This document shows, in pieces, positions 5,413 through 57,018 of a stretch of DNA of 64,000 bases. Position 1 is the first letter of the stretch, and each line of letters starts with the position of its first letter. The translations under genes were made by a program, and so were the position numbers. The notes beneath the pieces are model-generated. The model was not told the origin of the DNA and made no database searches. It worked only from the letters and a program-made list of their open reading frames with translations. Origin of the DNA: an uncultured Clostridia bacterium (lineage in GTDB: Bacteria > Bacillota > Clostridia > Christensenellales > UBA1242); the NCBI GenBank assembly GCA_947366895.1, contig CANBBP010000005.1, positions 1 through 64,000 of the forward strand, given 5' to 3'.

Positions 5413-5598
5413 TCTATTGTTTTAATAAATATCTTATTTATCAAAGACAGCAAGTGAAGGTAAACTTCGTAATTCTTTTTTAAAAAGTTCTTGCCGAGGT
5501 AAGTAATGAGGAAATTTTTTCTTTTAATTTAAGATAGTTTTACCTTGTACTTACTTTGAGTATAAGGTTTTTTTATTTTAACTTAAAAGGAGAAGTAG
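5413..5598 (+). promoter_or_regulatory. rplJ 5' leader, likely the autoregulatory L10 leader element
   Basis: ~185-nt untranslated leader between the consensus promoter and the rplJ ATG. Firmicute rplJ leaders are known L10(L12)4-binding regulatory RNAs, but the structure was not verified here. Confidence 0.45.
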
Positions 5599-10559: not shown

Positions 10560-10651
10560 TTTATTAAATAATTAAATATATAATTGCTAGTAAGGATTTA
10601 AAAAAAATAAGGTTATAGTCACTAACATTTGAAACTAGCGGAATAATTAAA

Positions 10652-10871: not shown

Positions 10872-12374
10872 CTAAATAACCACATAAATATCATAAGTAT
10901 TGGTTTTAGTTTTAATAATGCCACCTTTGAAGTGTCTTTCGGTTGTGTAAGTTTCTGTAAATACTTTTTGAGTTATCGGCTCATTACTTGCCATTTGGTT
11001 TATTGCGTAATTTATACCTATTTCAATTTTGTTCTCATAAACTTTCACAAACTTTATGAATAATTCAAACGCCATATTTGGACATTGTTTCATAGTGTAT
11101 TTGAAGAAGTTTTGTATATCTTCTTTTGTTAGTTCATATCTCTCTTTAGATTGCTCTATAATAACTTTCTCTTGCAAGTCTTTCTTTGCGTTTTCAAGTT
11201 CTTCTAATCTTGCTTTTGTTGTTTCGGTAAATATGCCTTTTTCAATAGCTGACATAATATTTGCAATGGATGTATTTACTCGTTGTAAATCGGTTTTTAA
11301 TGCGTTTAATGGTGTATTGCTACCAATCCTTTTCTTATGCACTTCAAATATCTTTTCAGTCAATATTTCAAGGTTTTTAGGTGTATTGAATTGTTCTATT
11401 AAGAATTTGTCTACAACACCCTCAATAAAGTCCTTATGCAATCTTTTATTATGACAGTTATCTTTCTTTGTTCCTATGCAATTATAGTATCTCAAATGTT
11501 CGCCATTAGAAGATATTGCAGATACTGGATACATTTTCTTATTGCAATAACCACAATATATTTTGTCTTTTAGTTTAAATATTTCATGATTATCTTTTCT
11601 GCAACCATATCTATTTTTATCCATTCTTTCTTTAACCTTTGTGAATAGTTCTTTTGTTATTATTTGTGGGTAGATATTGTCATATCGTTTGCCATTTATC
11701 TCATATTCGCCAGTGTATAGTTTTCTTTGTAGAAAATGTCTTATTGTTTGTGGTATAAACTTTTGACCTTTATTTGTAATGCTTTCATTCTCTAAATCTT
11801 TAGATATTTGCAATATTGTTTTGCCACTTGCATAATCTTTGTAAATTCTATTTAATATTTCACTTTCTTCTTGGTTTACTTTTAACATTTTGTTTTCTTT
11901 AATGTAGCCATAAGGAACACTGCCAATACAATGTCCTTTCATTCGTGATTCGTGTAGTCCACGACTTACTTTTTGTGCTAATTCTTCACTAAAGTATTGG
12001 TTCATTCCTTCTAGCAAACTTTCAAGTAAAACTCCTTCTGGTGTTTCTGGTATATTTTCCATTGCAGATAAAAGTTTAATTCCATTATCTTTTAAGTGTT
12101 TTCTATGAATTGCTGACTCGTATTTGTTTCTTGCAAATCTGTCTAGTTTGTAAACTAATACATAGTCCCATTTCTTGTTATTGCTATCTTTTAGCATTCT
12201 TTGAAAAGATTCTCTTTCATCTGTTGTTCCACTGATTGCTCGGTCAATGTATGAATCAACGATTATTATATCGTTTCTTTTCGCATAGTCTTGGCAGACA
12301 TGAACTTGTCCCTCTATGCTTTGTTCTGTTTGGTTTGTGCTAGAGTATCTAGCGTAGATTACTGCTGTTTTCAT
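10872..12374 (-). CDS. Large serine recombinase (resolvase catalytic domain + recombinase domain + zinc-ribbon region), 500 aa
   Basis: N-terminal MKTAVIYARYSSTNQ... carrying the catalytic Ser/Arg resolvase signature. Its length and the Cys-rich segment (CGYCNKKM ... YYNC ... C.N.K) fit large serine recombinases. Confidence 0.85.
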   Translation of the reverse strand: MKTAVIYARYSSTNQTEQSIEGQVHVCQDYAKRNDIIIVDSYIDRAISGTTDERESFQRMLKDSNNKKWDYVLVYKLDRFARNKYESAIHRKHLKDNGIKLLSAMENIPETPEGVLLESLLEGMNQYFSEELAQKVSRGLHESRMKGHCIGSVPYGYIKENKMLKVNQEESEILNRIYKDYASGKTILQISKDLENESITNKGQKFIPQTIRHFLQRKLYTGEYEINGKRYDNIYPQIITKELFTKVKERMDKNRYGCRKDNHEIFKLKDKIYCGYCNKKMYPVSAISSNGEHLRYYNCIGTKKDNCHNKRLHKDFIEGVVDKFLIEQFNTPKNLEILTEKIFEVHKKRIGSNTPLNALKTDLQRVNTSIANIMSAIEKGIFTETTKARLEELENAKKDLQEKVIIEQSKERYELTKEDIQNFFKYTMKQCPNMAFELFIKFVKVYENKIEIGINYAINQMASNEPITQKVFTETYTTERHFKGGIIKTKTNTYDIYVVI

Positions 12375-12554
12375 TTTTTCTAAACTCCTTTATATTTTTT
12401 ATTTGTCTTTCGACGGAGCGAAACTAAACGAAAGCGGATTCTTGTTTTAAACTTTTAAATATATATATTTTTTAGTCAAGGTTTGCGAAAAGCAATACAC
12501 TTTAACCTTGACTAAAAAGAGTTTTCGTTTACGCTCCACAAGGCGAAAGATAAA

Positions 12555-13442
12555 TTAGTTGGTTGTTCTCAACTGAGATATTGTTTCTTTACTTACTTTT
12601 CCCACCAAGACACCTTCATCCCAACAATTAAAGTCATCAAATAAAAGTAGTTTTCTATCTTCAATTCCAATAGTGCAAACAATATCACTATCCATAATGT
12701 CTGATATGAAATAGGTCGGTAGTCCTTTTGAGTAAACAATTTTTTCTTCGGTCTTTGCTAAATATTTCATTATATAGGCGATAGATTGTGCCAAAGAATT
12801 TGGGGCTATTGGCTCAAAGTCGTTCCTTCCAAATCTATCTAAAAAATATTGGTTTTGATATGTCGTTTGCATTTGATGTGTTTTTGTGCTGAAATCTCGT
12901 TTTTCTATAAACTCTAAATTGTTGTTTGGTATATACACAAGTGTGTGAAAGTGTAGCCTTTTATTTATTGGACTTCGTTCCCAAACACCTGCATATTTCC
13001 AACTTTTGCGATTAGATAAATGTTTTAGACAATTAGACAACTTCGTTTTAAATGACTCTTCGTTGTGCTTTTTGTCATCATAAGTAAATGTGCAAAAATA
13101 TGACCATTCTTGTAAGTAAACTTTTCTTACAAATCTTTTTCTTCTTTCAATTAAATTTCTTAACTTTCTGTCTAAATTAACTTTTACAAACTCTCTTAAT
13201 CTTTCTTCGTTCTTTATATATGGCTTTAAACTTTCAATAATTTCGATGTTTCTTTCTCGTGGCTTTTTATCTAAATTTTCTCTATATGTCTTTTCAAAAA
13301 GTTTGTTTAAATTTGTTGTCGATGTTTCTAAATTTTCTTTCTTAATAGTGTTAGTTTTCCGTTTTTTGTGTGGTTGTAATTCTTTGGGTATTGCAATGTA
13401 ATGGCTACCATCGAAATACACTTTTGTTTCTCCAAATGGCAT
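12555..13442 (-). CDS. Rolling-circle replication initiator of the HUH superfamily with a phiX174-type double-tyrosine motif
   Basis: Motif 1 FTFTYDD, motif 2 HFHTLVY (HUH), and motif 3 AYIMKYLAK, which is Y-x-x-K-Y-x-x-K as in phiX gpA (YVAKYVNK). Confidence 0.7.
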   Translation of the reverse strand: MPFGETKVYFDGSHYIAIPKELQPHKKRKTNTIKKENLETSTTNLNKLFEKTYRENLDKKPRERNIEIIESLKPYIKNEERLREFVKVNLDRKLRNLIERRKRFVRKVYLQEWSYFCTFTYDDKKHNEESFKTKLSNCLKHLSNRKSWKYAGVWERSPINKRLHFHTLVYIPNNNLEFIEKRDFSTKTHQMQTTYQNQYFLDRFGRNDFEPIAPNSLAQSIAYIMKYLAKTEEKIVYSKGLPTYFISDIMDSDIVCTIGIEDRKLLLFDDFNCWDEGVLVGKVSKETISQLRTTN

Positions 13443-13443
13443 A

Positions 13444-13599
13444 TTACACCTGCCTTTTGGATGGTTTCTCTTTTATTTTGCGGTGTTGCATAATGTGATC
13501 TAGTAGTGCAAGATAAAACGATTCATCTAAGCCACCAACATCAATTAAATTTTGAGAGAAATCCTTATTGTTTGATTTGTTTTTAAAAATGTTTTGCAT
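13444..13599 (-). CDS. Small 51-aa ORF immediately upstream of, and overlapping, the rep start
   Basis: RBS aaaggagg 9 nt before the ATG. Its stop overlaps the rep start region (translational coupling). No known motif. Confidence 0.3.
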   Translation of the reverse strand: MQNIFKNKSNNKDFSQNLIDVGGLDESFYLALLDHIMQHRKIKEKPSKRQV

Positions 13600-14236: not shown

Positions 14237-14398
14237 AGTGGGCGAAGAAAAAAGTGGAGGTGCGATAGCCTGCGGCACTCCACTTTTTGCCCACTTTCGT
14301 TTTGCGAAAGGTTTGTTTATATTTAGTTGTTTTAGTTTAGGCGTGTGCTTGTCTGCTGGAGCGAAGCGACAGCACTTGTATCAAGACAAGCACACGCC
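14237..14398. other. Cluster of three GC-rich stem-loops inside an AT-rich island; candidate rolling-circle origin (dso or sso)
   Basis: Nested hairpin with outer stem aagtgggc/gcccactt and inner stem aaaaagtggag/ctccacttttt (14249-14259 / 14278-14288). Hairpin ctttcg-ttttg-cgaaag (14294-14310). 15-bp perfect inverted repeat ggcgtgtgcttgtct / agacaagcacacgcc (14340-14354 / 14384-14398). Confidence 0.45.
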
Positions 14399-14514
14399 TG
14401 AGTGCCATTTTATTTAAAATTTTATAAAATAAGTCAACGATTGCTTGCAAAAATCATATCATTTATGTTATATTAAAAGTAAAGAAAGTAAAGATTTTTT
14501 AAGGAGCAAAAAAT

Positions 14515-14724
14515 ATGATAAAGCAAGCGAAGTTATCAAATAAATGCCAAATAACAGTTCCGAAAGAGGTTAGGAAATTGTTGGAGATTGATAAGGGAGA
14601 TGATGTCGTTTTTTATATTGAAGATAATGAGGTAAAACTAACCAGTATTAAAAACATTAATCTAAAACTAAAGAACCCAAAAAAGAAAACAACAATGAAA
14701 AAAGGAGAAAATAACAATGGATAA
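14515..14724 (+). CDS. AbrB/MazE/SpoVT-family small DNA-binding protein, 69 aa; first gene of the R-M operon
   Basis: Swapped-hairpin signature QITVPKEVRKLLEIDKGDDVVFYIEDNEVKL. RBS aaggagc. Overlaps the hsdM start by 8 nt. Confidence 0.7.
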   Translation: MIKQAKLSNKCQITVPKEVRKLLEIDKGDDVVFYIEDNEVKLTSIKNINLKLKNPKKKTTMKKGENNNG

Positions 14725-16444
14725 ACAAAAGATTGACAACAAGGCAAGTTTGATATGGAGCATCGCAGATAAACTTCAAGGAGATTATAAGCCTCATGAA
14801 TATGGAGATGTTATTCTTCCATTTACTGTGCTTAAAAGGTTTGATAGCGTCCTTGCCGACACTAAAGATAAGGTTATTAAAGTAGCATCTGAATATCCAG
14901 TTATTACTCCACCTGTTGACAAACTTCTTAAAAGTGTAGCAAAACAACAAATATACAATATAAGCAAATATAATTTTAAAAATTTGCTTGACGACCCTGA
15001 TAATATAAAAATCAACTTTAAAAAATATATTGCTGGCTTTTCTGAAGAAGTAAAAGATATCTTAAGTAAAGAGCATGGGTTTGAGTTTGATAGACAAATT
15101 GAAAAACTAGACAATGCGGGTTTGTTATATTTGATAATTGCCGAATTTAATACCGAAAAGGCAGATTTACACCCTAACAAAGTTAGCGATATTGAAATGG
15201 GGTATATTTTTGAGGAAGTAATTAGAAAATTTAGTGAAACATATCAGGCTGATGCTGGAGAATTCTACACCCCAAGAGAAATTATTGATTTAATGGTTAA
15301 TTTACTTTTAAATAATGAAGAATTAAGTGAAAACAATAAGGTAATACAAATATATGACGGAGCGTGTGGCACTGGTGGGATGTTGTCTATCGCCTACGAA
15401 CGAATCAAGGAACTAAATAGTACAAATGCCGTTTTTACAAATGGGCAAGAAATTAACCCTCAAACTTATGCTATTTGTAAAAGTGATATGCTACTTAAAG
15501 GTGGTAAAAATTCAACAATTAAATTTGGTAGTACCCTTTCGAACGATCAATTTTCTGAAGAACAATTTGATTATATTATTATGAATCCACCTTTTGGTAG
15601 AGAATGGAAAAAAGACAAGGAAGAAGTTGAAAAGGAATATAAGCGTGGTTTTGCTGGTAGATTTGGTGCAGGATTGCCTGCAGTTAGTGATAGTCAAATG
15701 TTATTTTTGCAAAATGCTATTTCAAAAATGAAACCAAGTGGAAGTAGAGTTGCAATAATACATAATGGTTCTGCTTTATTTGCTGGTGATGCAGAAAGTG
15801 GACCAAGTGAAATTAGAAGATATATAATTGAAAATGACTTGCTTGAAGCCATTATTCAATTACCAAACAACATCTTTTATAATACTGGAATAGCTACATA
15901 TATTTGGCTATTGTCAAATAAAAAATCAAAAGAAAGAGTTGGTAAAATTCAACTTATAAATGCAAATGAAATGTTTGTAAAGCGACGCAAGGTTTTAGGC
16001 GAAAAGCGAAATGACATTTCAAAGACGCAAATTGAGGATATAACCAAACTTTATGATGATTTTAAAGAAGCCGATAACAGCAAAATATTAGACAACGAAG
16101 ATTTTAAGTATTTTAAAGTTGTAGTTGAAACGCCGATTAAAGATGAAAAAAGCAACATTATATTAGATAAAAAAGGCAAAAAACAACCTGATATAAATTT
16201 AAGAGATTTTGAGATTATACCAGCGAAAGAAAATATTGAAGCATTTATGCAAAAAAATGTTTATCCTTTCAACCCTGATGCTTATATAGATAAAGACAAA
16301 ACTAAAGTTGGTTATGAAATTCCTTTTACAAGGTTATTTTATAAATTTATTCCACCTACTCCATCAAAGGCTATCTTTGCTGAAATTAAAGAGCTTGAAA
16401 AACAAGAAACCACTTTAATGAAGGAGTTATTTAGCAATGATTAA
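14717..16444 (+). CDS. hsdM: Type I restriction-modification system, methyltransferase subunit
   Basis: N6-adenine methyltransferase motif IV NPPFG (IIMNPPFGREW) and a SAM-binding region DGACGTGGML; 575 aa. Confidence 0.9.
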   Translation: MDKQKIDNKASLIWSIADKLQGDYKPHEYGDVILPFTVLKRFDSVLADTKDKVIKVASEYPVITPPVDKLLKSVAKQQIYNISKYNFKNLLDDPDNIKINFKKYIAGFSEEVKDILSKEHGFEFDRQIEKLDNAGLLYLIIAEFNTEKADLHPNKVSDIEMGYIFEEVIRKFSETYQADAGEFYTPREIIDLMVNLLLNNEELSENNKVIQIYDGACGTGGMLSIAYERIKELNSTNAVFTNGQEINPQTYAICKSDMLLKGGKNSTIKFGSTLSNDQFSEEQFDYIIMNPPFGREWKKDKEEVEKEYKRGFAGRFGAGLPAVSDSQMLFLQNAISKMKPSGSRVAIIHNGSALFAGDAESGPSEIRRYIIENDLLEAIIQLPNNIFYNTGIATYIWLLSNKKSKERVGKIQLINANEMFVKRRKVLGEKRNDISKTQIEDITKLYDDFKEADNSKILDNEDFKYFKVVVETPIKDEKSNIILDKKGKKQPDINLRDFEIIPAKENIEAFMQKNVYPFNPDAYIDKDKTKVGYEIPFTRLFYKFIPPTPSKAIFAEIKELEKQETTLMKELFSND

Positions 16445-17687
16445 GATGAAAGAAAGTGGTGTTGAATGGATTGGACAAATTCCTGAAGACTGGAAATTAA
16501 AAAGATTGAAAATAGTTTTACAGGAAAGAAATGAAAATAATAATCCTGTTAAAACAGATTATATATTGTCATTGACAAATGATAAAGGAGTTATTCCATA
16601 CTCTGAAAAAGGCGATATTGGTAATAAATCTAAAGATGATATTACTGGGTATAAGTTAGCTTATCCAAATGATATTGTGCTAAACAGCATGAATGTTGTT
16701 ATTGGTTCGGTCGGTATTTCCAACTATTTTGGAGCTGTAAGTCCAGTTTATTATATGTTAAGACCAAGAAATAAAAATGACGATGTAAGGTATTATAATT
16801 ATATTTTTCAGACAAAAGAATTTCAAAATAAGTTAAAGGGTTATGGGAATGGAATTCTAGAAATAAGAATGAGAATTCAGATGTTAAAATTAAACACTGT
16901 AGAGTTACCTGTTCCATCAAGTGAAGAGCAAGTAAAAATCGCTGATTTTCTTGATAAAAAATGTTCGCAAATTAATGCACTTATAAAAATTCAAGAAAAA
17001 GAAATTGAAAAGATTAAACAATATAAACAAGCCGTTATAAGCGAAGTTGTAACAAAAGGCTTAGACCGTAGTGTGAAAATGAAAGATAGTGGCGTTGAAT
17101 GGATAGGCGAAGTCCCTGTAGATTGGGAAGTAAAAAAATTAAAATTTTGTTATAAAAACAGAAATACTAAGTATACATTAGGAGAATTCCCATATATTGC
17201 ATTGGAAAATATAGAATCTTTTAGTGGGAAATATGTTTACACTGAGACAAATTCAAATTATTTACTTGAAGGTTCAATTATTGCGACTAAGGGAGATGTG
17301 ATATTTGGTAAGCTTAGACCGTATTTAACAAAAGCATTTCTAATTGAATCTGATTCTTGTGTATCTACAGAATTTGCAGTATTTTATTCAAATGAGAATA
17401 ATTCAGAATTTTTAAAATATTTATTTTTAAGCTATAGATTTATAGACATAATAAACTCTTCTACATATGGGACAAAGATGCCAAGAGCGAATATTGATTT
17501 TATAAATAATCTAGAGATAGCTTTACCAAATTTAAAAACCCAGCAAGAAATATCGGAGTATCTTGAAAAAAAATCAAATGAAATAGATAACTTAATACAA
17601 ATAAAGAAATTTAAAATTCAAAAACTTCAAGATTATCAAAAATCTTTAATATACGAATATGTAACAGGTAAAAAGAGGTGTATTTAA
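16437..17687 (+). CDS. hsdS: Type I restriction-modification system, specificity subunit
   Basis: Two target-recognition halves, each preceded by the conserved repeat MK(E/D)SGVEWIG(Q/E).P.DW. Overlaps hsdM by 8 nt and hsdR by 10 nt. Confidence 0.85.
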   Translation: MIKMKESGVEWIGQIPEDWKLKRLKIVLQERNENNNPVKTDYILSLTNDKGVIPYSEKGDIGNKSKDDITGYKLAYPNDIVLNSMNVVIGSVGISNYFGAVSPVYYMLRPRNKNDDVRYYNYIFQTKEFQNKLKGYGNGILEIRMRIQMLKLNTVELPVPSSEEQVKIADFLDKKCSQINALIKIQEKEIEKIKQYKQAVISEVVTKGLDRSVKMKDSGVEWIGEVPVDWEVKKLKFCYKNRNTKYTLGEFPYIALENIESFSGKYVYTETNSNYLLEGSIIATKGDVIFGKLRPYLTKAFLIESDSCVSTEFAVFYSNENNSEFLKYLFLSYRFIDIINSSTYGTKMPRANIDFINNLEIALPNLKTQQEISEYLEKKSNEIDNLIQIKKFKIQKLQDYQKSLIYEYVTGKKRCI

Positions 17688-20647
17688 TGGAAACAAAAGA
17701 AAAGAATTATGAAGCGTTCATTGAAAGATATTTAACCACTACAGGTGGCTATATAAAAGATAATGGTTCTGGTTATGACAATAAAATTGGAATAATTACA
17801 CCTGATTTATTTTCTTTTATTAAAACCACTCAACCTAAAGAATGGAAAAGGGTTCAGGATAGTCAAGGCTCTCAAGCAGAGATATATTTTATTGATAGAC
17901 TGAAGAAAAATATTGATGAATATGGATTTTTACATGTTTTACGCAACGGAATTAAACTGAATGGAGTTACAATAAAACTTATTTTCTTCAAGCCAGAGAC
18001 TGAAATCAATCCAGATAGTATCAAATTATATAATCAAAACATTTGCAAGCTTGTTCGTCAATTACACTATTCATATCTAAATAATAATAGTCTTGATACC
18101 GTGCTTTTTGTAAATGGTTTTCCAATTGCAACAATTGAATTGAAAAACGAGTTTACTGGACAAACTTGTCAAGATGCTATACGACAATACAAATACGATA
18201 GGGACCCAAATGAAGTTATATTTCAATTTAATAAAAGGTCTTTAGTGCATTTCGCAGTTGATTTGCAAGAAGTATATATGACAACAAAATTGAATAGTAC
18301 ATCAACAAAATTTTTGCCATTTAACCAAGGCTCAAATGGTGCAGGTAAAGTTGGTGGTAAGGGTAATCCAATAAATGAAAATGGTTTTGCAACTGCTTAT
18401 TTGTGGGAGAATGTTTTAAATAAAGATAGTCTTTTTGATATATTAAATAAATATATACAATTGGAAGTTAAGAAAAACAAAAAAACTGGCGAAATTAAAA
18501 AGACTTTGATTTTCCCTAGATATCATCAGTTGGATGTTGTAAGAAAGTTAATAGCAGATGCAAAAGCAAATGGTGCTGGAAAAAATTATTTAATTCAACA
18601 TAGTGCAGGAAGTGGAAAAAGTAATAGTATTGCATGGCTTGCTTATCGTCTTGCAACTTTACATGACAGTAATGATAATACAATTTTTGATAGCGTAGTG
18701 GTTATTACAGACAGAAGAGTTCTTGACCAACAACTTCAAGATAATATCTATCAGTTTGAGCATACTCTAGGCTTTATAGAAAAAATTGACAAGAACAAAA
18801 CCAGCCAAGATTTATTGAAAGCAATAAATGCGGGCAAAAAAATAATAATTACAACATTACAAAAATTTCCTATTATTTATAAAGACATTGAATCTCAACA
18901 TAAGCATTTTGCAGTTATAATAGATGAGGCTCATTCATCTCAGACTGGTAATAGTGCAAAAAAACTTAAAGCTGGTTTAGGAGATTTGGAAGAAGCAATA
19001 AAAATTGAGAATGAACTGGAACAAAAAACCTCTGAAGATGAAGATAAATTGCTTTTTGAACTTGCAAGTCAGGGAAAACAAAAAAATCTATCATTCTTTG
19101 CTTTTACTGCAACTCCAAAAGCCAAAACTCTTCAAATATTTGGAACAAAAACTGAAGAAGGTAAATTTGTTCCCTTCCATATATATTCAATGCAACAGGC
19201 AATTGAAGAAGGCTTTATTTTAGATGTTTTGCAAAATTATATGACTTATAGCACATTTTATAAGTTGGTTAAAAAGACAAATGAAGACCCTGAATTTGAT
19301 GCTAGTAAAGGAATTAAAGAACTTGTAAGGTTTGAGACTTTGCATCCTACCAACATATCTCAAAAAACAGCAATTATTATAGAGCAATTTTTAAACACAA
19401 CCGCCAACAAAATAAACGGAAAAGCAAAAGCTATGGTTGTTACTCCATCGAGATTGCATGCGGTAAAATATGTAAATGCTTTTAAAGAATATATTAAAAA
19501 GATATCTATGGAAGACAAAATTAAGGTGTTAGTTGCCTTTTCTGGCGAAGTTTTTGACCCTGACACAAAAGAGACTTATACGGAGCCAGGGATAAATAAG
19601 ATAAGCGAAAGCCAATTGCCTGAAGCTTTTGAAGAAGAATACAATGTATTAATAGTTGCTGAAAAATATCAAACAGGATTTGACCAACCATTGCTCCATA
19701 CGATGTTTGTTGATAAAAAACTTTCTGGAATAAAAGCTGTTCAAACTCTTTCACGACTTAATAGAATCTGTGAAGGTAAAACTGATACTTTCGTTTTGGA
19801 CTTTGTAAATAAAGCTGAAGATATACAAAATTCGTTCCAAGACTTTTACCAAGGCACTGTGTTGACAGAAGGTTTTGATGTTAATAATGTTTATGATATT
19901 TATGGCAGATTGGAGGCATATAAACTGGCTGATATAAATGACATAAATGGATTCGCTGAATTATATTATTCAAATTCTGAAGATATGGGTAAATTAAGCT
20001 CTTATTTGTATAGGGCAAAAGAAAAATATATTGTTCTTGAAAAGAATGATAAACACGAATTTAAATCTATTATGCAAGCATTTTTACGAAATTATAATTT
20101 CGTTACTCAAGTAACTCGTATGAATGATAAAGAATTGCAATCGGCATACATTTATTATAAATATCTAAATCAGTTTCTTCCAAAAGACAACGCCAAATCA
20201 GTAGATGTTAAAGATTTAGTCGAGTTAGAGTTCTATAAGCTTGAAAAGAAGTTTGAAGGAAGCATAACTCTTACAAAAGAACAAGCCGAAATTGAGCCTC
20301 CTACTGGAAATATCGGCAAAAAAGGTGAAACGGCAAAGAGTAAATTGAGCGAAATTATCAATAAAATTAATCAAAAGTATCAGACAAAGTTCACGAATAT
20401 GGATAAAGTCTTTGAGCAAATCGAAAACGATTATTTAAATGATGATAGAATGAAAGCATTTGCTAAAAACAACGAAGAAAAAGCATTTAAAAAAGTTTAT
20501 GATATCGAGTTTGAAAACAAAGCGATACAAAGATATGAGCAAAATAGCGAATTATTTAAGATTTTATTTACTGACGAAGAATTTATGAATGATATTAAAT
20601 CAGCTTTATTTAAAGCAATTTATAGTAAATTAAAACAATCTCAATAA
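17678..20647 (+). CDS. hsdR: Type I restriction enzyme, restriction (helicase-nuclease) subunit
   Basis: 989 aa. Helicase motif I AGSGKSNS and motif II DEAH (AVIIDEAHSSQTG). Size and operon context fit a type I R subunit. Confidence 0.85.
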   Translation: MYLMETKEKNYEAFIERYLTTTGGYIKDNGSGYDNKIGIITPDLFSFIKTTQPKEWKRVQDSQGSQAEIYFIDRLKKNIDEYGFLHVLRNGIKLNGVTIKLIFFKPETEINPDSIKLYNQNICKLVRQLHYSYLNNNSLDTVLFVNGFPIATIELKNEFTGQTCQDAIRQYKYDRDPNEVIFQFNKRSLVHFAVDLQEVYMTTKLNSTSTKFLPFNQGSNGAGKVGGKGNPINENGFATAYLWENVLNKDSLFDILNKYIQLEVKKNKKTGEIKKTLIFPRYHQLDVVRKLIADAKANGAGKNYLIQHSAGSGKSNSIAWLAYRLATLHDSNDNTIFDSVVVITDRRVLDQQLQDNIYQFEHTLGFIEKIDKNKTSQDLLKAINAGKKIIITTLQKFPIIYKDIESQHKHFAVIIDEAHSSQTGNSAKKLKAGLGDLEEAIKIENELEQKTSEDEDKLLFELASQGKQKNLSFFAFTATPKAKTLQIFGTKTEEGKFVPFHIYSMQQAIEEGFILDVLQNYMTYSTFYKLVKKTNEDPEFDASKGIKELVRFETLHPTNISQKTAIIIEQFLNTTANKINGKAKAMVVTPSRLHAVKYVNAFKEYIKKISMEDKIKVLVAFSGEVFDPDTKETYTEPGINKISESQLPEAFEEEYNVLIVAEKYQTGFDQPLLHTMFVDKKLSGIKAVQTLSRLNRICEGKTDTFVLDFVNKAEDIQNSFQDFYQGTVLTEGFDVNNVYDIYGRLEAYKLADINDINGFAELYYSNSEDMGKLSSYLYRAKEKYIVLEKNDKHEFKSIMQAFLRNYNFVTQVTRMNDKELQSAYIYYKYLNQFLPKDNAKSVDVKDLVELEFYKLEKKFEGSITLTKEQAEIEPPTGNIGKKGETAKSKLSEIINKINQKYQTKFTNMDKVFEQIENDYLNDDRMKAFAKNNEEKAFKKVYDIEFENKAIQRYEQNSELFKILFTDEEFMNDIKSALFKAIYSKLKQSQ

Positions 20648-20660
20648 ATCTTTTAATAAA

Positions 20661-20692
20661 AAAGACATACTAAATAAATAGTATGTCTTTTT
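20661..20692 (+). terminator. Rho-independent terminator after hsdR
   Basis: Stem gacatact / agtatgtc, loop aaataaat, then ttttt. Confidence 0.75.
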
Positions 20693-20805
20693 CGCTAGTT
20701 TCAAAGTTTATAACCTATATAACTTTATTTTTTTTGTTAAGTTTTATTTAATAAGTAAAGTTAAAAATAATTGAAAAATGCAAGAAGTTATGATATAGTT
20801 TTTAT

Positions 20806-23800
20806 ATGCAAAATATATTTATAGGAAAAACAAATATTGATTGTGTTACAAGTTTAATAGAAAAATTAAAACAAAATTATTTAACAAATAAAAATGCACA
20901 TCATATTTTTATAGTACCAGATAGAGTATCTGTTTTAACGGAGATTAAAATATTTGAAGCTCTTAATATTGAAAGTACTTGCTCAATAGAGGTTCAAACT
21001 TTATCAAGAATTGCTTCACAGGTTGTTGATAATGTAAGAGTTATTCCTAAAACTTCTAGTTGTATGCTTTTTCAAAAACTTTTAAAACAATATAGAAATG
21101 ATTTAAAATGTTTTAATAAAAAGATAGATATTGATTTAGCTTCAACATTATATAAAACAATCAGCCAGTTTAAGAGTTGTAAAATTGCTCCTGAGGAAGT
21201 AAATGTAACAACTCAAAATAAACTATTAGAAGATAAATTAAACGATATTGCTATTCTTTATTCTGCCTATCAAAGACACTTAAGAGAAAATGAATTGCTT
21301 GACAGCATGGATAGACTTGATTTTGTAATAGATAAAATTTCACAAAATGAAAAGATAAAAAATAGTTTTGTATATATAGGTTTTTTTGATGCTTTTACTT
21401 TGCAAGGTTATCAAATTATAAGTGGCATTATTAATAGTTGTATAGAATTTAATATAGGCTTAACCAGCACCGATAATAGTATTAATGAACATATTTATGA
21501 TAATGCTTTAAAAGATAATATTTTAAAAATTATGGAGGCACAAAATAAAGAACCTAATATAATTTTTTGTAAAGAAAATGTTAGCGGTCAATTTAAGTAT
21601 TTGCAAGATAATTTATATGGCTTTAATTATTATCCATTAAAGTTAAAAGAAAGTAATATTCGCTTATTTGAAGGAAAAACATTTGAAGAAGAAGTTTTAT
21701 TTTGTTGTAGTAATATCAAAAATTTAATTGAAAGTGGAAAATATAAGTTTAAAGATTTTGTTGTGGCTGTTCCTAATTTATTGGAAAAACATAATGAAAT
21801 AGAAAGAATTTTTAATTCTTATAATTTTAATTTTTATATAGATATTTCTGAAAATCTTGCTAATAGTATTCTTGTTAGATTTATTGACCAACTTGTTCAA
21901 GTTGTGTTAGAAAACTTTTCAAGGGTTAGTGTATTATCGTTTATAAAAAATAAATTATTAAATTTGGATTATAATGATATTGAAGATTTTGAAGATTACA
22001 TAATTAAATATAATTTAAATAATGGTTATCAAATAAAAAATAGTAAAATAGAAAACAGCAAATTTTATTCAGGTTTTAATAATTGTAGAAATGCTTTATT
22101 TGATATGACTAGCGAATTTATTGATGATATTAAAAATAGTAAAACCTATAATGATTTTATTTTGAGTTTAGAGAAAATTCTTTTAAAATTAAACATACCT
22201 GAAAAACTTGTTGATTATACTATTTATTACACAAGTATAAATAATATTAAACAGGCCAAATTATTTGAGCAATATTATAATAATTTAACAACCGTTTTAG
22301 ATTCATTGCGAGAAATTCTTGGCAATGAGGAATGTGATTTTAAATTGTTTTATTCCACTTTACTAAGTGGAATAAGTGAAACAAAAATTTCGACTCCACC
22401 TTTATCTACAAATGCTATATTTATAGGTGATGCAAGTACTAGCTTTTTTGATAATTCCAAAGTTTATTTTATTCTTAATGCTGATGAAAAAAGTTTTCCT
22501 TTTTCTATGAATGATTGTGGTATTATTAGTGATAAAGAGATAAATCAATTAAATGATTATTACAAACTTGAACCTAGTATACAAAGTATAAATAGCAAAG
22601 AAAGATTTAAAAGTTTTGAACTTATATTAAAAGCAAAAGAAAAGTTATTTATAAGTTATAATTTTAGTGTTTCACCAAAAAGTAAAATATTAGATGATAT
22701 ATCTAAAATGTTTATAATTGAAGAAAGCAATAATAAATTTAAAACTTTACAATTAGATAATTATAATAGACAAGATTTTTATGTTATTAATAACAATTTA
22801 TCTACTGCAAGTAATAATCTTATTTCTAAACTTCGTGAAGTTTATGATGGCAAAGGTGATGCAGATGAAAAGGTTGCTATTTTATTTAATGCTGTAAATA
22901 GAACTAAAAAGGTTGTTGACCTTAAAAAGTTTGACTTTAAAAATATTATAAATTTAAGTAATAATGTTTTTTTTACAAAAGATAGCATAAGTGTCTCACA
23001 GGTAGAAAATTATATGACCTGTCCGTTTATTCATTTTGTGCGATTTGGTTTAAATTTAAAAGAAAAAGATATAGGAGAATTGGATAACTTAAATATCGGA
23101 AATATATTACACAATGTAGCAAAGGTATTTATTGATAATAATTCTTTACCATTAAAATCTGAAAAAGAGATAGGCGTTAATGTTGAAAAAGCATTTAATG
23201 AAGTTATAAATAGAGATGTTTATGAAAGTGTAAAAAATAATTTATTAAATAAAGTATTAATAAAAAATCTTTTAAGTGAGGCTAAAAGATTTTGTAGTAT
23301 TTTAAATTATCAAGCAAAGTTTTCTTCCTTTAAATCTTTTAAAACGGAGATTAGATTTGATGATAATGGTATTATAAAAAGTTTAAAAATTAATTTGGGA
23401 AATCGTATATTAAAGTTAGTTGGACAAGTTGATAGAATTGATGTGTTTGAAGATTATTTTAGAATTATAGATTATAAAACAGGAAAGTGCGATACCTCTT
23501 TAAAAGAACTTTTCTTTGGTAAAAAAGTTCAGTTAGAAGCTTATTTAAAAGTAATAGAAAGTAGTTTAAAGTTAAAACCTGCAGGTGCTTATTATATGCC
23601 TGTAAAAAGTGGTATTGCAGATGAAAATAGTTCTTTGCAATTAAAGTATCAATTAAAAGGTAGAACCATTGATAATGAAAAAATAATTGTTGCTAGCGAT
23701 AATAGATTAGCAGGTGAAGAACTTACAAGCGACATTATAGACATAAAGTATAATAAAAAAGATGAAAAAGAAGAAAAAAAATTAAGTGCTTATTCTAAAG

Positions 23801-24057
23801 TTATAAATAGTAAGGATATTGAAACACTATCAAATTATGCCATAAATTTAATATCAAAAACCTGCAAAGATATTTTAGCTTTAAATATTACTCCGAGTCC
23901 TCTAGTTTTAGGAAGTGACAACCCATGTAAAAATTGCAGTTATATTGGCCTTTGTAGATTTGATGAAAAGTGTGGCAACATAAAAAGACAACCAACAGCA
24001 AAAATTTCAATACAAAATTTTATTAAACATAATGATGAAGAAATAGTAAAAGGATAA
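20806..24057 (+). CDS. addB: ATP-dependent helicase/nuclease subunit B (AddB/RexB-type)
   Basis: 1083 aa. C-terminal nuclease region with Fe-S-cluster-type cysteines (CPFIHFVRFGL ... CKNCSYIGLC). It immediately precedes addA. Confidence 0.8.
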   Translation: MQNIFIGKTNIDCVTSLIEKLKQNYLTNKNAHHIFIVPDRVSVLTEIKIFEALNIESTCSIEVQTLSRIASQVVDNVRVIPKTSSCMLFQKLLKQYRNDLKCFNKKIDIDLASTLYKTISQFKSCKIAPEEVNVTTQNKLLEDKLNDIAILYSAYQRHLRENELLDSMDRLDFVIDKISQNEKIKNSFVYIGFFDAFTLQGYQIISGIINSCIEFNIGLTSTDNSINEHIYDNALKDNILKIMEAQNKEPNIIFCKENVSGQFKYLQDNLYGFNYYPLKLKESNIRLFEGKTFEEEVLFCCSNIKNLIESGKYKFKDFVVAVPNLLEKHNEIERIFNSYNFNFYIDISENLANSILVRFIDQLVQVVLENFSRVSVLSFIKNKLLNLDYNDIEDFEDYIIKYNLNNGYQIKNSKIENSKFYSGFNNCRNALFDMTSEFIDDIKNSKTYNDFILSLEKILLKLNIPEKLVDYTIYYTSINNIKQAKLFEQYYNNLTTVLDSLREILGNEECDFKLFYSTLLSGISETKISTPPLSTNAIFIGDASTSFFDNSKVYFILNADEKSFPFSMNDCGIISDKEINQLNDYYKLEPSIQSINSKERFKSFELILKAKEKLFISYNFSVSPKSKILDDISKMFIIEESNNKFKTLQLDNYNRQDFYVINNNLSTASNNLISKLREVYDGKGDADEKVAILFNAVNRTKKVVDLKKFDFKNIINLSNNVFFTKDSISVSQVENYMTCPFIHFVRFGLNLKEKDIGELDNLNIGNILHNVAKVFIDNNSLPLKSEKEIGVNVEKAFNEVINRDVYESVKNNLLNKVLIKNLLSEAKRFCSILNYQAKFSSFKSFKTEIRFDDNGIIKSLKINLGNRILKLVGQVDRIDVFEDYFRIIDYKTGKCDTSLKELFFGKKVQLEAYLKVIESSLKLKPAGAYYMPVKSGIADENSSLQLKYQLKGRTIDNEKIIVASDNRLAGEELTSDIIDIKYNKKDEKEEKKLSAYSKVINSKDIETLSNYAINLISKTCKDILALNITPSPLVLGSDNPCKNCSYIGLCRFDEKCGNIKRQPTAKISIQNFIKHNDEEIVKG

Positions 24058-24061
24058 GTTT

Positions 24062-27000
24062 ATGGCAAGTAATTTCACCCCTACCAAACATCAACAAGAG
24101 GTTCTAGATAATAAAAGTAATAATTTACTTGTTTCTGCTTCTGCTGGTAGTGGAAAGACAGCAACTATTATACAAAAGATTTTAAATCTTATTACAAAAG
24201 ATCATATAGATATTCAGGAACTTTTAGTTATAACTTTTACTGAGGCTTCAAGTCTTGAAATGAAAATTAGGCTTAAAGAAAAACTTTTTGAGTATGCAGG
24301 TAAGAATATAGAACTTAGTAATCAAATAGATAAAATACCAACAAGTGATATTAGTACTATTCACTCATTTTGTTCTAAGTGTATAAGAAAGTATTTTTTT
24401 GAGTTAGGACTTAATCCTAATTTTATAGTTCTAGATGCTAATAATTCTAATTTTTTAAAAGGAACAGCAATTAATAGAGTTATTGAAGATTATTCTATTA
24501 AACAAGATGATGAATTTGTTTTGCTTTCTCAAATATTTGGTGGCGGAAGAAATTTTTCAGGGTTAAAAGAAAATGTTCTTAATCTTTATGAATTTTTTTG
24601 CTCTGTAGAAGATAGAGAAGATTATATAAAAAATATTGCAAAACTTTGTTATGAAGAAGATTTACATAAAAATAAAGCTTGTGAAATGTTAAATAGTTAT
24701 TTATTATCTAATATATATTTTATTACTTTGTCATTAAAAGATTATTGTATTCAAGCACAAGTAAATAACGCAGATTATTTTGTTCAATTTATAACCTTAT
24801 TACAAACACAATTTGAAGCCATTAGTTATAAGAAAGATTTTTTAAAAAATAGACAAGAGATATTAAAAACTGAATTACCTTTAATAACAAAGAAAAAATT
24901 ATCAGAGGATAATAATTCCTTTAAAGAACAATTTAAACCTTTTTATGATGATGTTAAAAAGATAGTTCAAGATTTAAAGAAAATTGTTATTGATAGACCA
25001 ATAGAAGATTTATCAAACGATTTAAAAAATACAAAAAAAGTAATTGATAAATTTTTAGAGATTGAAAATGAATTTGAAAAACATTATGATGATTTAAAAC
25101 AAAAGAGAAATGCTTTAGATTTTAACGACTTAGAAAAATATTTTTTAAGGTTATTAAAAAATGAAGATATTAGAAAGGCTATATCTGAAACTTATAAATA
25201 TATTTTTGTTGATGAGTATCAAGATATAAATAATATTCAAGAACTTATTCTTAGCAATTTAACTATGAACAATAATATGGTTATGGTGGGGGACATTAAA
25301 CAAAGTATTTATGGTTTTAGAAATAGTACTCCTACTATATTTGTAAATAAGAGTTTAGATTATTCTAATAATGCAGAAAGTGGAACATTAATAAACTTAA
25401 ATGAAAATTTTAGAAGTAATCCTAGTATATTATCGTTTGTAAATGAAATTTTTAATAAATGTATGTCACAAGATTTTGGCGGTGTTGATTATATTCAAAA
25501 TGGTCAATTACAAGGCATGACTGAATATAAGAAGGTAAACGATATTCCTATTATTAATTTACATTTAATTAATACTAAAAAAGATGATAGTGATTTAGAT
25601 GAATTAGAAGAAGAATATTCTTATCCATATAGTGTACTAGAAGATAAAAATTCATATTTTACTAAATTTACTATGGCAAGAAAAGAGGCAATGATTATTG
25701 CTAAGGAAATATTAAATATTGTTGGTAAAGACTATTATGATGCTAAGAGTGGTGAAACAAAAAAAATTACATTTGGTGATATTGCTATACTATCAAGAAA
25801 AAATGAGTTTTTAAAACAAGTGGCTAATGTTTTAATGGAATATAAAATACCTATCACTTTAAATAGTAATGATAATATTTATAAAGACAGTGATATTATT
25901 GCTATTCTTAGCATTTTAAAAATAGTAAATAATTTTCATGATGATTTGGCTTTAAGTACTTCTTTAACCAGTTTTATTGCTGAAGTTACTTTTGATGAAC
26001 TTGCAATTATAAGAAATAAGTATTCAGAATGTGACTTTTTTTATGAAAGTGTAAAACTTTATTTTGAAAATGAAAGTGATAAACTACAAAGTAAATTAAA
26101 GAGTTTTATTGAAATTATTAATTTATTAAGAGATAAATTGGTATATTGTTCGATATATGAAATCTTAAATTTTTTACAAACTAAATATGATTTTTTATCA
26201 GGTATCAAAATGTTGCCTAATGGTGAAGATAGATACAACACGGTTAAAAAATTTATTGATAGTTTTGAAAAAGCTGAATATAATTATGACCTTTCAAGAT
26301 ATTTAGATTTTGTTGAAAATTACGCAAAGGATACAGAAAGCCCTTCCACTTTAGCTACAAATCCAAACAGTATAAAGATGGGAACTATTCATTCATCAAA
26401 AGGGTTAGAGTATCCAGTTGTATTTTTGGTGGGTATTGGTAAAAGTTTTTCAAATACTACTTTTAGAAGTGAAATTTTAAAAGATAAAGATTATGGTTTG
26501 GGATTATATTATTATGACCTAGATAATAGTGAAAAATTTTCCACTCTTGCAAGAAATGCCATAACTATTAACTTAAAAAAACAGGAAAAAGCAGAAGAAT
26601 TAAGGTTACTGTATGTAGCATTAACTAGGGCTAAAAATCATTTAATTATTATTGGTAGTAAAAATTTAAATAATGTTATAAAAATAAATTCTATTAAAGA
26701 TGCACAGGCTGTTAATTCTTTTACTGAGTGGACTTTGGCTTCTCTTAGCGATTTGGCTTTTAACTCATTAAAACAGGGGAAAACTAATTTTACTGATAAA
26801 CATAAATTATTTAATATAGATGTTAATATTTATAATGATAGCTTTTTTGAAATGGGAAAAATAAATAAAGTAGATTTAAAATTAAATAATGTAACAGATA
26901 GCGATGTTAAAAAATTATTAAAATCGTTTGATTTTATTTTTGAAAAAAGCAACAATTTAGCTCTTAAAAATACAGTTTCAAGTATGTTACAAGAACATAA

Positions 27001-27562
27001 TGAAGAAGGTGTCTCATTAAATTTTGAGCCTAAGAAACTTGAAGTTAGTGAAAATAAAAAAGAGGGAATAGATGCCTCAAAACTTGGAACAATTTATCAT
27101 AACATTATGCAAAAGGTTGACTTTAATAACGTTCATGCAAGTAATAAAGATAATGTAGAAAAAATAATTGATAGTTTAAATATTGAACAAAAATATTTAA
27201 ATAAAGTTGATGTTAAAAAAATTATTAATTGTATAAATAAAATTCAAAATTTAAAAATTAAAAGTTCTTTAAAAGAACAACCTTTTTTAAGTTATTTACC
27301 TTATAATAAAATTTTTATTAAAAGTGATATTAAAGAAAAAATTATTATTCAAGGTGTAGCCGACTTAATAGTTGAAACAGAAGATGGTAAAATTCTTATA
27401 GACTACAAGACAACAAGAGCAAATACTAAAGACCAGTTGGTCGAAAAATATCAAGTTCAGTTAAAATTATATAAAGTATGCCTAGAAAAAGCCATGCAAA
27501 AAAATATTGATAAAGTTTATATTTATTCTTTTTGTTTTGATGATTTTATTGAAATTAAATAA
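24062..27562 (+). CDS. addA: ATP-dependent helicase/nuclease subunit A (UvrD-like helicase + C-terminal nuclease)
   Basis: Walker A SASAGSGKT near the N-terminus, UvrD-family motifs (VDEYQDIN), 1166 aa. Confidence 0.85.
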   Translation: MASNFTPTKHQQEVLDNKSNNLLVSASAGSGKTATIIQKILNLITKDHIDIQELLVITFTEASSLEMKIRLKEKLFEYAGKNIELSNQIDKIPTSDISTIHSFCSKCIRKYFFELGLNPNFIVLDANNSNFLKGTAINRVIEDYSIKQDDEFVLLSQIFGGGRNFSGLKENVLNLYEFFCSVEDREDYIKNIAKLCYEEDLHKNKACEMLNSYLLSNIYFITLSLKDYCIQAQVNNADYFVQFITLLQTQFEAISYKKDFLKNRQEILKTELPLITKKKLSEDNNSFKEQFKPFYDDVKKIVQDLKKIVIDRPIEDLSNDLKNTKKVIDKFLEIENEFEKHYDDLKQKRNALDFNDLEKYFLRLLKNEDIRKAISETYKYIFVDEYQDINNIQELILSNLTMNNNMVMVGDIKQSIYGFRNSTPTIFVNKSLDYSNNAESGTLINLNENFRSNPSILSFVNEIFNKCMSQDFGGVDYIQNGQLQGMTEYKKVNDIPIINLHLINTKKDDSDLDELEEEYSYPYSVLEDKNSYFTKFTMARKEAMIIAKEILNIVGKDYYDAKSGETKKITFGDIAILSRKNEFLKQVANVLMEYKIPITLNSNDNIYKDSDIIAILSILKIVNNFHDDLALSTSLTSFIAEVTFDELAIIRNKYSECDFFYESVKLYFENESDKLQSKLKSFIEIINLLRDKLVYCSIYEILNFLQTKYDFLSGIKMLPNGEDRYNTVKKFIDSFEKAEYNYDLSRYLDFVENYAKDTESPSTLATNPNSIKMGTIHSSKGLEYPVVFLVGIGKSFSNTTFRSEILKDKDYGLGLYYYDLDNSEKFSTLARNAITINLKKQEKAEELRLLYVALTRAKNHLIIIGSKNLNNVIKINSIKDAQAVNSFTEWTLASLSDLAFNSLKQGKTNFTDKHKLFNIDVNIYNDSFFEMGKINKVDLKLNNVTDSDVKKLLKSFDFIFEKSNNLALKNTVSSMLQEHNEEGVSLNFEPKKLEVSENKKEGIDASKLGTIYHNIMQKVDFNNVHASNKDNVEKIIDSLNIEQKYLNKVDVKKIINCINKIQNLKIKSSLKEQPFLSYLPYNKIFIKSDIKEKIIIQGVADLIVETEDGKILIDYKTTRANTKDQLVEKYQVQLKLYKVCLEKAMQKNIDKVYIYSFCFDDFIEIK

Positions 27563-56875: not shown

Positions 56876-57018
56876 AAATTATACCTATAAAGAGTGTGTT
56901 AGGGACAAGCCCGATTGTAGCACACAGCAACCTGTTTATATTAACAAGGTGCTAATACTTGATTGATGGGATATTAATTTAATTATGAGAAAAATCCTAT
57001 CTATAAATCTAGATAGGG
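56876..57018 (+). ncRNA. SAM-I (S-box) riboswitch with intrinsic terminator upstream of metK
   Basis: Conserved S-box blocks tta.agggac.agcccgat..gcaacc and aaggtgctaa, followed by terminator cctatcta/tagatagg plus a T-run. Confidence 0.7.

Follow-up and report, generated by a model that had tools for sequence, protein, structure and literature searches.

A microvirus-type rolling-circle initiator beside a large serine recombinase and a structured DNA element on a chromosomal island of an uncultured Clostridia bacterium

Some integrative elements have their own replication initiator for use after excision. This is the case for ICEBs1, Tn916 and cassettes of the SCCmec (staphylococcal cassette chromosome mec) type, and excised ICEBs1 and Tn916 replicate by rolling circle (PMC5704250). 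Streptococcal integrative mobilizable elements (IMEs) encode "Rel_PHA00330" proteins, which resemble rolling-circle replication (RCR) initiators of the phage type (Coluzzi 2017, Guedon 2017). RS1, the satellite of CTXphi, is an integrated element that combines an HUH replication initiator protein (Rep) with integration and regulation functions, carries no morphogenesis genes and has its origin type in common with a fuller relative. Here we describe an island of about 10.1 kb in the chromosome of an uncultured Clostridia bacterium (Christensenellales, UBA1242), found within positions 1 to 64,000 of contig CANBBP010000005.1 (the window). On this island a Rep of the phiX174/Microviridae type is encoded beside a large serine recombinase and a type I restriction-modification (R-M) operon, and is associated with two structured non-coding elements, H1 and H2, and a small open reading frame (ORF).

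The island resembles the streptococcal IMEs in being a small integrated element with an integrase of the tyrosine or serine kind, an HUH protein resembling RCR initiators, variable cargo with R-M or toxin-antitoxin genes among it and no virion genes; in both cases function is read from context only. In a comparison made by description only, it differs from them in its hosts, which are uncultured Christensenellales and other Clostridia, and in having no TcpA-type coupling protein. We know of no description of H1, H2 or the small ORF for the streptococcal elements. SCC elements, like the present island, use large serine recombinases. However, the initiators of ICEBs1, Tn916 and SCCmec are MobT/Rep_trans relaxases or a helicase resembling the minichromosome maintenance (MCM) proteins, and the integrative and conjugative elements (ICEs) carry a full conjugation apparatus. 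RS1 has an inovirus-type Rep and relies on the XerCD recombinase of its host, whereas the island has a microvirus-type Rep and its own serine recombinase, and its dependence on a helper would be hypothetical. Unlike Microviridae, finally, the element carries no capsid gene and no other microvirus gene besides rep, is integrated by a serine recombinase and extends over 10 kb with cargo.

The rep gene occupies positions 12555-13442 on the minus strand, starts with ATG and encodes 295 amino acids, as proposed in an earlier reading of the window made without database searches (the sequence-only reading). Pfam family PF23343 (REP_ORF2-G2P) matches residues 115-231, corresponding to profile positions 2-98 of 99, with E=9.4e-12; at 45.5 bits, the match exceeds the gathering score, which is 27.8. 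Motif 1 lies at residues 116-122, the HUH metal-binding motif (H164-F-H166) at 164-166 and YxxKYxxK at 223-230; a conserved DGSHY motif is found in the N-terminal part and a beta-rich domain at the C-terminus. The sequence-only reading had recognised HFHTLVY and AYIMKYLAK correctly, had given motif 1 as FTFTYDD where the residue is C (CTFTYDD, in the context YFCTFTYDD), and had not mentioned DGSHY. An alignment of 40 full-length family members, the most distant about 30% identical, shows no variation at R103, T118, T120, F131, W148, E155, R162, H164, H166, G205, Y223, K226, Y227 and K230, a set that covers both threonines of motif 1, both histidines of HUH and both tyrosines with their lysines. 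Y121 and D122 of motif 1, as well as DGSHY, are at least 90% conserved in the same alignment. An AlphaFold2 model built from it (predicted local distance difference test score, pLDDT, 92.2; predicted template modelling score, pTM, 0.86) contains the HUH endonuclease fold and places Y223 and Y227 within a predicted helix spanning residues 214-231.

When the model was compared with predicted viral structures (Foldseek against BFVD), 133 matches were obtained at E<=0.001, and those with names are nearly all Microviridae "replication initiator protein". Profile-sequence alignment of the family with phiX174 gpA (probability 83.5%, E=8e-6) brings all three motifs into register, pairing CTFTYDD with DTLTL, RLHFHTL with RLHFHAV and YIMKYLAK with YVAKYVNK. 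The family hidden Markov model (HMM) also aligns motifs 1 and 2 of the gokushovirus Reps (Chp2 ORF4/VP4 and SpV4), motif 1 being set against FLTLTYED and FVTLTYSDE. Unlike these motifs, the remainder of the protein is its own: similarity to Microviridae Reps does not extend beyond the motifs (family HMM, 13-20 bits), and the N-terminal DGSHY/helical region and the C-terminal beta domain belong to the present family. The family HMM has no significant match in the filamentous and plectroviral genomes of M13, Propionibacterium phage B5, MV-L51 and SpV1; a wrap-around coding sequence of SpV1 considered as a possible counterpart was rejected, being a P-loop protein that the HMM does not match. PHROGs and NCBIfam returned nothing useful for Rep, and a sequence search of the PDB gave chance matches only. 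From its sequence and predicted structure, Rep is a catalytically intact rolling-circle initiator of the phiX174/Microviridae type, within superfamily I of HUH enzymes with two catalytic tyrosines, and its nearest named relatives are microvirus Reps. The class assignment made in the sequence-only reading is thus upheld by the Pfam profile, the invariant histidines and tyrosines, the register with gpA and the confident model.

The family to which this Rep belongs is large. A word-indexed search retrieved 3,533 homologues, all with PF23343 and nearly all unnamed, and an exhaustive search grouped the family into 852 clusters at 50% identity (E<=0.001). A single motif pattern identified 514 loci in species-representative bacterial genomes; 80 were kept, almost all of them in metagenome-assembled genomes (MAGs) of gut Clostridia, the closest being from Candidatus Onthoplasma (Christensenellales; 70% identity). 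The identical Rep sequence is present in independent samples. Searches of translated nucleotide collections (tblastn) gave no match in 72,556 PLSDB plasmid records and one among 50,697 phage records, namely an unannotated 57-kb faecal assembly, while IMG/VR contains three Rep-family loci, one of them a distant match (26%) on a 4.4-kb contig of microvirus size. The present clade of microvirus-type Reps is essentially chromosomal, since it has no plasmid match, is nearly missing from the virus catalogues and occupies 514 loci in bacterial genomes. Tested as a microvirus provirus, the island shows no major capsid protein gene beside rep; as a rolling-circle plasmid, no plasmid match; and as an inovirus-type Rep system, no HMM match. 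It is none of the three. The contig of microvirus size (L104, 4,441 nt), which encodes the distant relative, has at about 1565-1605 a perfect hairpin (GCACTAATAT...ATATTAGTGC) with CTCTTGATATAT at the boundary between the loop and the 3' stem, an echo of the phiX174 nick motif.

Related loci repeat the same gene order. A small ORF of 40-51 codons is followed by rep and, about 180-250 nt downstream on the same strand, by the recombinase gene, with varied cargo on the other side; a recombinase homologue follows Reps of the short type within about 200 nt in nearly all loci with room for it. A second subgroup has longer Reps (341-354 amino acids) and no recombinase gene directly downstream. On the island the small ORF (13444-13599, minus strand, 51 amino acids) ends with a stop codon one base before the rep start and contains the motif ..LDESFYLALLDHIM..; its product is 67.5% identical to that of a 43-codon ORF in L001 (E=8e-14), and the gene is called at the same place in L001-L013, L100 and L101. 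It may specify a regulator or a directionality factor. The recombinase gene (10872-12374, minus strand, 500 amino acids) encodes Resolvase (1.1e-28), Recombinase (3.8e-16) and zinc-ribbon (Zn_ribbon_recom, 1.5e-7) domains, each above its Pfam threshold, and matches the PHROG 95 integrase family at 8e-96. The linkage of Rep to recombinase, small ORF, H1 and H2 is fixed. One apparent Rep-less derivative, adjoining a complete element in L060 (12853-15560, minus strand), comprises H2, a serine recombinase gene, an ORF in which the small-ORF motif recurs (...EQKAFYVSMLMRIL) and H1 in two copies (15283-15363 and 15482-15560), with no detectable remnant of rep.

When the DNA of the island was compared with that of all loci, the non-coding segment 14301-14500 was matched in 78 of 94 loci, a frequency comparable to that of the rep gene. 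Within this segment lies H1 (14333-14410, minus strand), a candidate origin of 78 nt whose DNA folds as a three-way junction. A covariance model based on 48 variants scores it at 94.6 bits, as the sole copy in the window, and finds H1 in 76 of 87 Rep-bearing sources; of the eleven remaining loci, ten are cut off on the side where H1 would lie. On one strand, complete copies reach 53-102 bits, and the other strand gives only a palindromic shadow of 22-40 bits. The model finds no H1 in phiX174, SpV4, Chp2 or L104, and an H1 21-mer has no exact match in IMG/VR. The DNA of the element remains 76-92% identical even between loci whose Reps are only about 48% identical. Where Rep is short, H1 shares the strand of rep and stands 0.4-2 kb upstream of it; where Rep is long, H1 is found about 100-320 nt downstream in the opposite orientation.

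At minimum energy, H1 folds into an outer stem of 14-15 bp (GGCGTGTGCTTGTCT/AGACAAGCACACGCC) and two hairpins, a small one (CTTG-ATA-CAAG) and an inner, covarying one that is interrupted by a TC/TC internal loop and capped by GC-TTC-GC (GCTTCGC, or GCGAAGC on the plus strand); folded as single-stranded DNA (ssDNA) it gives z = -6.0/-6.5. Across the alignment, 93.9% of cells are paired, compared with 22-48% when the partners are slid, and compensatory changes occur in 11 of 21 pairs against five at most in any slid register; none of 500 shuffles reached the observed values. The inner stem exists in at least 12 different sequences, all of which pair, and one-nucleotide indels in the loops exclude a coding function. 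H1 is under structural selection. The sequence-only reading had suggested looking for a nick site in the hairpin region 14237-14398. Two hairpins are indeed found there: the one within H1 is conserved elsewhere and offers CTTGATA as a candidate site, whereas a GC-rich, terminator-like hairpin with A and T runs at its flanks (14240-14300; ssDNA fold z=-5.3/-4.1) is not conserved in the family, its DNA being similar in only about five loci.

Two motifs within H1 recall microvirus origins. The conserved stretch TCTTGATAC shares CTTGATA with the viral-strand origin of phiX174, annotated in the phage record at position 4306, the A following CAACTTG in CAACTTG-ATATT. Read on the strand opposite Rep, the apex is GCGAAGC (GCGCAGC, GCGTAGC or GCGTTAGC in some variants) and so conforms to the GCGNAGC/GCGNNAGC mini-hairpin consensus; of 60 H1 variants, 57 show this consensus on that strand and none shows it on the Rep strand. 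Such mini-hairpins are documented at the primase-dependent complementary-strand origins of microviruses G4, St-1 and alpha3 (review, PMC13037366). Judged by these sequence features, H1 is best read as the DNA site of action of the present Rep family, and it possibly combines a nick site with a priming signal.

The spacer between rep and the recombinase gene is structured as well. H2 (12375-12554, minus strand, 180 nt) comprises four nested helices, in which 81.5% of cells are paired, compared with 36-55% in slid registers, and 17 pairs show compensatory changes; none of 500 shuffles reached the observed values. These helices were drawn by hand from the sequences, so that the test leans somewhat in their favour and the slid-register control is the fairer one, and RNAalifold applied to a MAFFT alignment did not recover them. 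H2 precedes the recombinase gene in all 54 cases in which rep lies upstream, and 17 of the 18 recombinase genes that have no rep beside them, close homologues included, lack it. Since its presence follows that of an upstream rep, H2 belongs to the junction of the two genes and is no generic recombinase leader. H2 is under structural selection, and could be a single-strand origin or an mRNA element. Rfam holds no counterpart of H1 or H2; at a permissive threshold, the non-coding regions gave sub-threshold chance matches only.

The island extends from about 10.62 to 20.71 kb of the window and is bounded by inverted arms resembling attachment (att) sites; its G+C content is about 0.30, compared with about 0.25 on both sides. 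The left junction, at the recombinase end (10600-10643), has an inner arm TTTGAAACTAGCG (10628-10640) and an outer, host-side arm AAAAAAAATAAGGTTATAG; the right junction, at the cargo end (20690-20733), has an inner arm CGCTAGTTTCAAA (20693-20705) and an outer, host-side arm CTATATAACTTTATTTTTTTT. The two junctions form an imperfect inverted repeat that brackets the island, and within the window the inner 13-mer is found a single time in each orientation, at 10628 and at 20693. The attL and attR sites of a large serine recombinase are expected to be near reverse complements, which is why these arms look like the halves of such sites. The same 13-mer is found just past the recombinase gene in L015, L045, L071 and L088, whose recombinases are 76-78% identical, and in L015 it is present at both ends of a 6.2-kb element; in the pairs compared, the flanks begin to diverge 6 to about 13 nt past it. 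Host-side sequences in the window and in L015 form a palindrome composed of an A-run, a stem and a T-run, and resemble the inner arm (TAGTcaCtAA and TAGTCATAAA versus TAGTTTCAAA). This arrangement suggests that the element inserted into a terminator-like palindrome upstream of addBA. The crossover is placed only approximately, and the mobility of the island is inferred.

The island inner arms joined head-to-head, as would be expected of attP, were found on three contigs as the perfect palindrome AACCGCTAGTTTCAAAG-TTTG-CTTTGAAACTAGCGGTT (L105, 2032-2063; L106, 3318-3349; L107, 774-805). These were rejected as evidence of a circle, the context being that of an unrelated conjugative element without Rep, recombinase or H1. 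The stand-alone palindrome lies in a GC-richer gut contig, where a gene for a type IV coupling protein (T4SS-DNA_transf, E=4e-37) is about 5 kb away. It may be either a site on a conjugative element that recombinases of this clade prefer to target, or a relic.

Taken together, these features lead us to favour, at a probability of roughly 0.5, an integrative element that is excised and then replicated as a circle by the rolling-circle mode, with Rep nicking H1. The element has its own integrase and, at both ends, att-like arms in common with its relatives. In such a cycle the recombinase would join the two inner arms and release a circle; Rep would recognise H1 and, going by the chemistry of its family and the phiX174-like CTTGATA, nick it in or beside the CTTG-ATA-CAAG hairpin, one tyrosine becoming linked to the 5' end. 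A helicase and a polymerase of the host would displace a single strand until the second tyrosine ended the round and resealed the DNA, the GCGAAGC mini-hairpin at the apex of H1, or H2, would prime the complementary strand, and the recombinase would re-integrate a copy, while the type I R-M cargo would benefit or addict the host. AddAB, encoded directly to the right of the island, combines helicase and nuclease activities; linear DNA is degraded by it, and intermediates of rolling-circle replication can also be its substrates. The sequence-only reading had proposed either an element replicating by rolling circle after excision or a Rep-derived relaxase used for mobilisation; it is supported in part, the former alternative being the one we favour and the latter the less probable.

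Several observations weigh against replication of an excised circle from H1. Look-ups of exact flanking-gene proteins returned occupied copies and the joined-outer-arms pattern was absent from metagenomes, so that no empty site was found, nor was a circular junction of the present element. The absence of the family from PLSDB means that it is evidently not long maintained as a plasmid. The CTTGATA match to phiX174 is a weak one, being a heptamer whose G and T vary in H1. The orientation of H1 relative to rep is opposite in the two element types and therefore allows no fixed geometry to be claimed, and G-U wobble counts, which show no strand asymmetry (21 versus 17 in H1, 56 versus 69 in H2), do not fix the functional strand of either element. 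H1 could equally be read as an origin of transfer (oriT) or a packaging signal; the first chemical step, a nick at H1, would serve conjugative mobilisation or the export or packaging of a displaced strand just as well.

The readings that compete with replication after excision depend in part on the long-Rep loci. Long-type elements span about 13 kb and consist of a serine recombinase gene, a gene for an S24 repressor of the CI/LexA type, a block of membrane-protein genes, then rep and H1; in L108 the repressor and recombinase genes precede the block. Long Reps are also found with a tyrosine integrase and a type III R-M system in L027 and with a DndC-like gene in L014. The block upstream of rep (L014, 4951-11940; L044, 2959-9973; L085, 3473-9946; L108, 4187-12130) encodes N-terminally anchored paralogues of about 190-520 amino acids, single-transmembrane proteins of 47 and 56 amino acids, a protein of about 471 amino acids with a signal peptide and a C-terminal anchor, and a polytopic membrane protein of about 705-714 amino acids (709 in one case) with a P-loop-like GSMGKKKT, for which at least 2,848 unannotated relatives exist. 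None of the block proteins matches a Pfam or PHROGs family, and a structure model of the 705-residue protein reached a pLDDT of 35.2. The block could serve morphogenesis or export in a small temperate element that has so far escaped notice. H1 is on average 81.6% identical between the two types (maximum 98.3%) and 80.1% within the short type, while Reps of the two types are only about 48-50% identical. One Candidatus Onthoplasma MAG (JBGVOQ01) contains a short-type and a long-type Rep locus (L016 and L026), and several other MAGs contain two copies of one type; among the 80 kept loci, one of eight two-locus MAGs has both types.

The island might instead be an IME in which Rep acts mainly as a relaxase and H1 as oriT, the ssDNA leaving through the mating pore of a co-resident conjugative element. 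We regard this as a tentative alternative. RCR initiators and relaxases are known to be interchangeable, as in ICEBs1 and Rep_1 plasmids, absence from plasmid collections agrees with an element whose circular state is no more than transient, and a copy of the joined-arms palindrome lies in the conjugative-element context mentioned above, about 5 kb from the type IV coupling protein gene. The streptococcal elements with Rel_PHA00330 would provide a precedent by analogy, but the relaxase role of that protein is assumed from gene association, and PHA00330 and PF23343 have been set side by side by description only. Moreover, neither the island nor the 25 commonest Pfam families among 114 neighbouring proteins include a coupling protein, a type IV secretion system component or a canonical relaxase, and a priming-type GCGNAGC mini-hairpin is no known feature of oriT. 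Somewhat more doubtful is the proposal that the island is a satellite or reduced derivative of a small temperate ssDNA phage-like element, its ssDNA being packaged or exported by the machinery of the long element much as RS1 depends on CTXphi. The gene content of the long type resembles that of a filamentous phage, H1 is as alike between the types as within the short type in spite of the divergence of the Reps, both types occur together in one MAG, and L060 carries a Rep-less element with two copies of H1. However, the virion reading of the long-type proteins is drawn from gene sizes and hydrophobicity only (pLDDT 35 for the model, nothing in Pfam or PHROGs), the Rep HMM has no match among the Reps of M13, B5, MV-L51 and SpV1, the family is nearly absent from IMG/VR, seven of eight two-locus MAGs lack one of the types, and a 10-kb element would need a capsid of flexible length. 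Extended to a single system, in which the ~13-kb long-Rep elements would be unrecognised small temperate ssDNA phage-like elements of gut Christensenellales and other Clostridia, and the short ones integrase-bearing satellites that share H1 and ferry R-M and defence genes as ssDNA, the proposal is speculative to the same degree.

Decay offers another account, in which an inactive remnant of a degraded ssDNA prophage or plasmid would lie by chance beside the recombinase gene and the R-M operon; there are no virion genes, and direct evidence of activity was not obtained. Yet the ORF is full-length with catalytic residues invariant in 40 diverse members, the five-part module recurs in dozens of species with differing cargo, the identical Rep is present in independent samples, and the non-coding H1 and H2 are under structural selection, all of which makes a remnant very improbable. 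Still harder to sustain is a rolling-circle transposon of the IS91/ISCR or Helitron kind with Rep as its Y2 transposase: Pfam gives no match to Y2_Tnp or any other transposase family at E<=1, the single H1 is internal to the island and not at an end, and the ends are inverted recombinase-type arms beside a serine recombinase gene, no insertion with H1 at one side and without arms having been seen.

In the literature we found no paper naming PF23343, no description of a microvirus-type Rep paired with a large serine recombinase, and none of the conserved small ORF, H1, H2 or the scale of the family in gut Clostridia. Integrative elements with a rolling-circle initiator are known in principle; the present family appears to be undescribed, and it spans at least 514 species-level genomes of gut Clostridia and 852 protein clusters, nearly all of its proteins being unnamed. 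A 295-residue HUH enzyme with two tyrosines and a structured site of 78 nt make a compact pair with which to ask how bacteria that are hard to culture replicate or export excised islands, and the same pair could serve as a sequence-specific HUH tag. If these elements do shuttle R-M systems, defence genes would move through the gut microbiome by a route that escapes current schemes for typing plasmids, phages and relaxases.

On the island the cargo is the type I R-M operon (14717-20647, plus strand), formed by hsdM (14717-16444; N6_Mtase, 3e-65, and HsdM_N), hsdS (16437-17687; Methylase_S, 1.7e-23) and hsdR (17678-20647; HSDR_N, SWI2_SNF2 and T1R_D3-like). A gene for a small DNA-binding protein of the AbrB/MazE family (14515-14724, plus strand, 69 amino acids; Pfam MazE_antitoxin, 2.2e-10; NCBIfam AbrB family, 1.9e-9) overlaps the hsdM start, and its product is probably a controller or antitoxin-like regulator of the cargo. 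The placement of rep between a serine recombinase gene and an R-M operon, as described in the sequence-only reading, is therefore correct, and so is the lack of structural genes nearby: recombinase, Rep, 51-residue product, AbrB-like protein and HsdM/S/R account for every ORF of the island, with no capsid or other virion gene among them or in the related loci inspected. A 90-nt direct repeat of 73% identity inside hsdS (16443-16532 and 17076-17165) represents the two half-repeats ordinary for type I specificity subunits.

Among the few loci inspected singly, the cargo is a HaeIII-type R-M system in L004 and an AlwI-type R-M system with DUF6119 in L009. A Pfam/PADLOC survey of the 114 neighbouring proteins was heterogeneous and mixed with host flank, and a quantified rule of "defence cargo" was dropped for that reason. 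From position 12570 onward, L004-L008 carry one Rep-recombinase module with defence genes that differ from contig to contig (a Hachiman-like HamA with a helicase, SIR2, DNA methylases). The identity of the module across contigs whose downstream defence genes differ suggests the existence of variable defence hotspots that the elements either occupy or generate.

The setting is chromosomal, again as had been claimed: Pfam and RNA matches identify the 3' end of a 16S rRNA gene, an L10 leader, rplJ, rplL and rplI to the left of the island, and addB and addA (20806-27562, with the addB start at 20806) directly to its right. The 16S rRNA 3' end occupies positions 1-481, and no 23S, 5S or tRNA gene was detected in the following 63 kb, so that the 16S gene apparently has no linked 23S partner. 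The L10 leader (5423-5582) and an S-adenosylmethionine (SAM) riboswitch (56882-56991) pass their Rfam gathering scores and are ordinary housekeeping elements.

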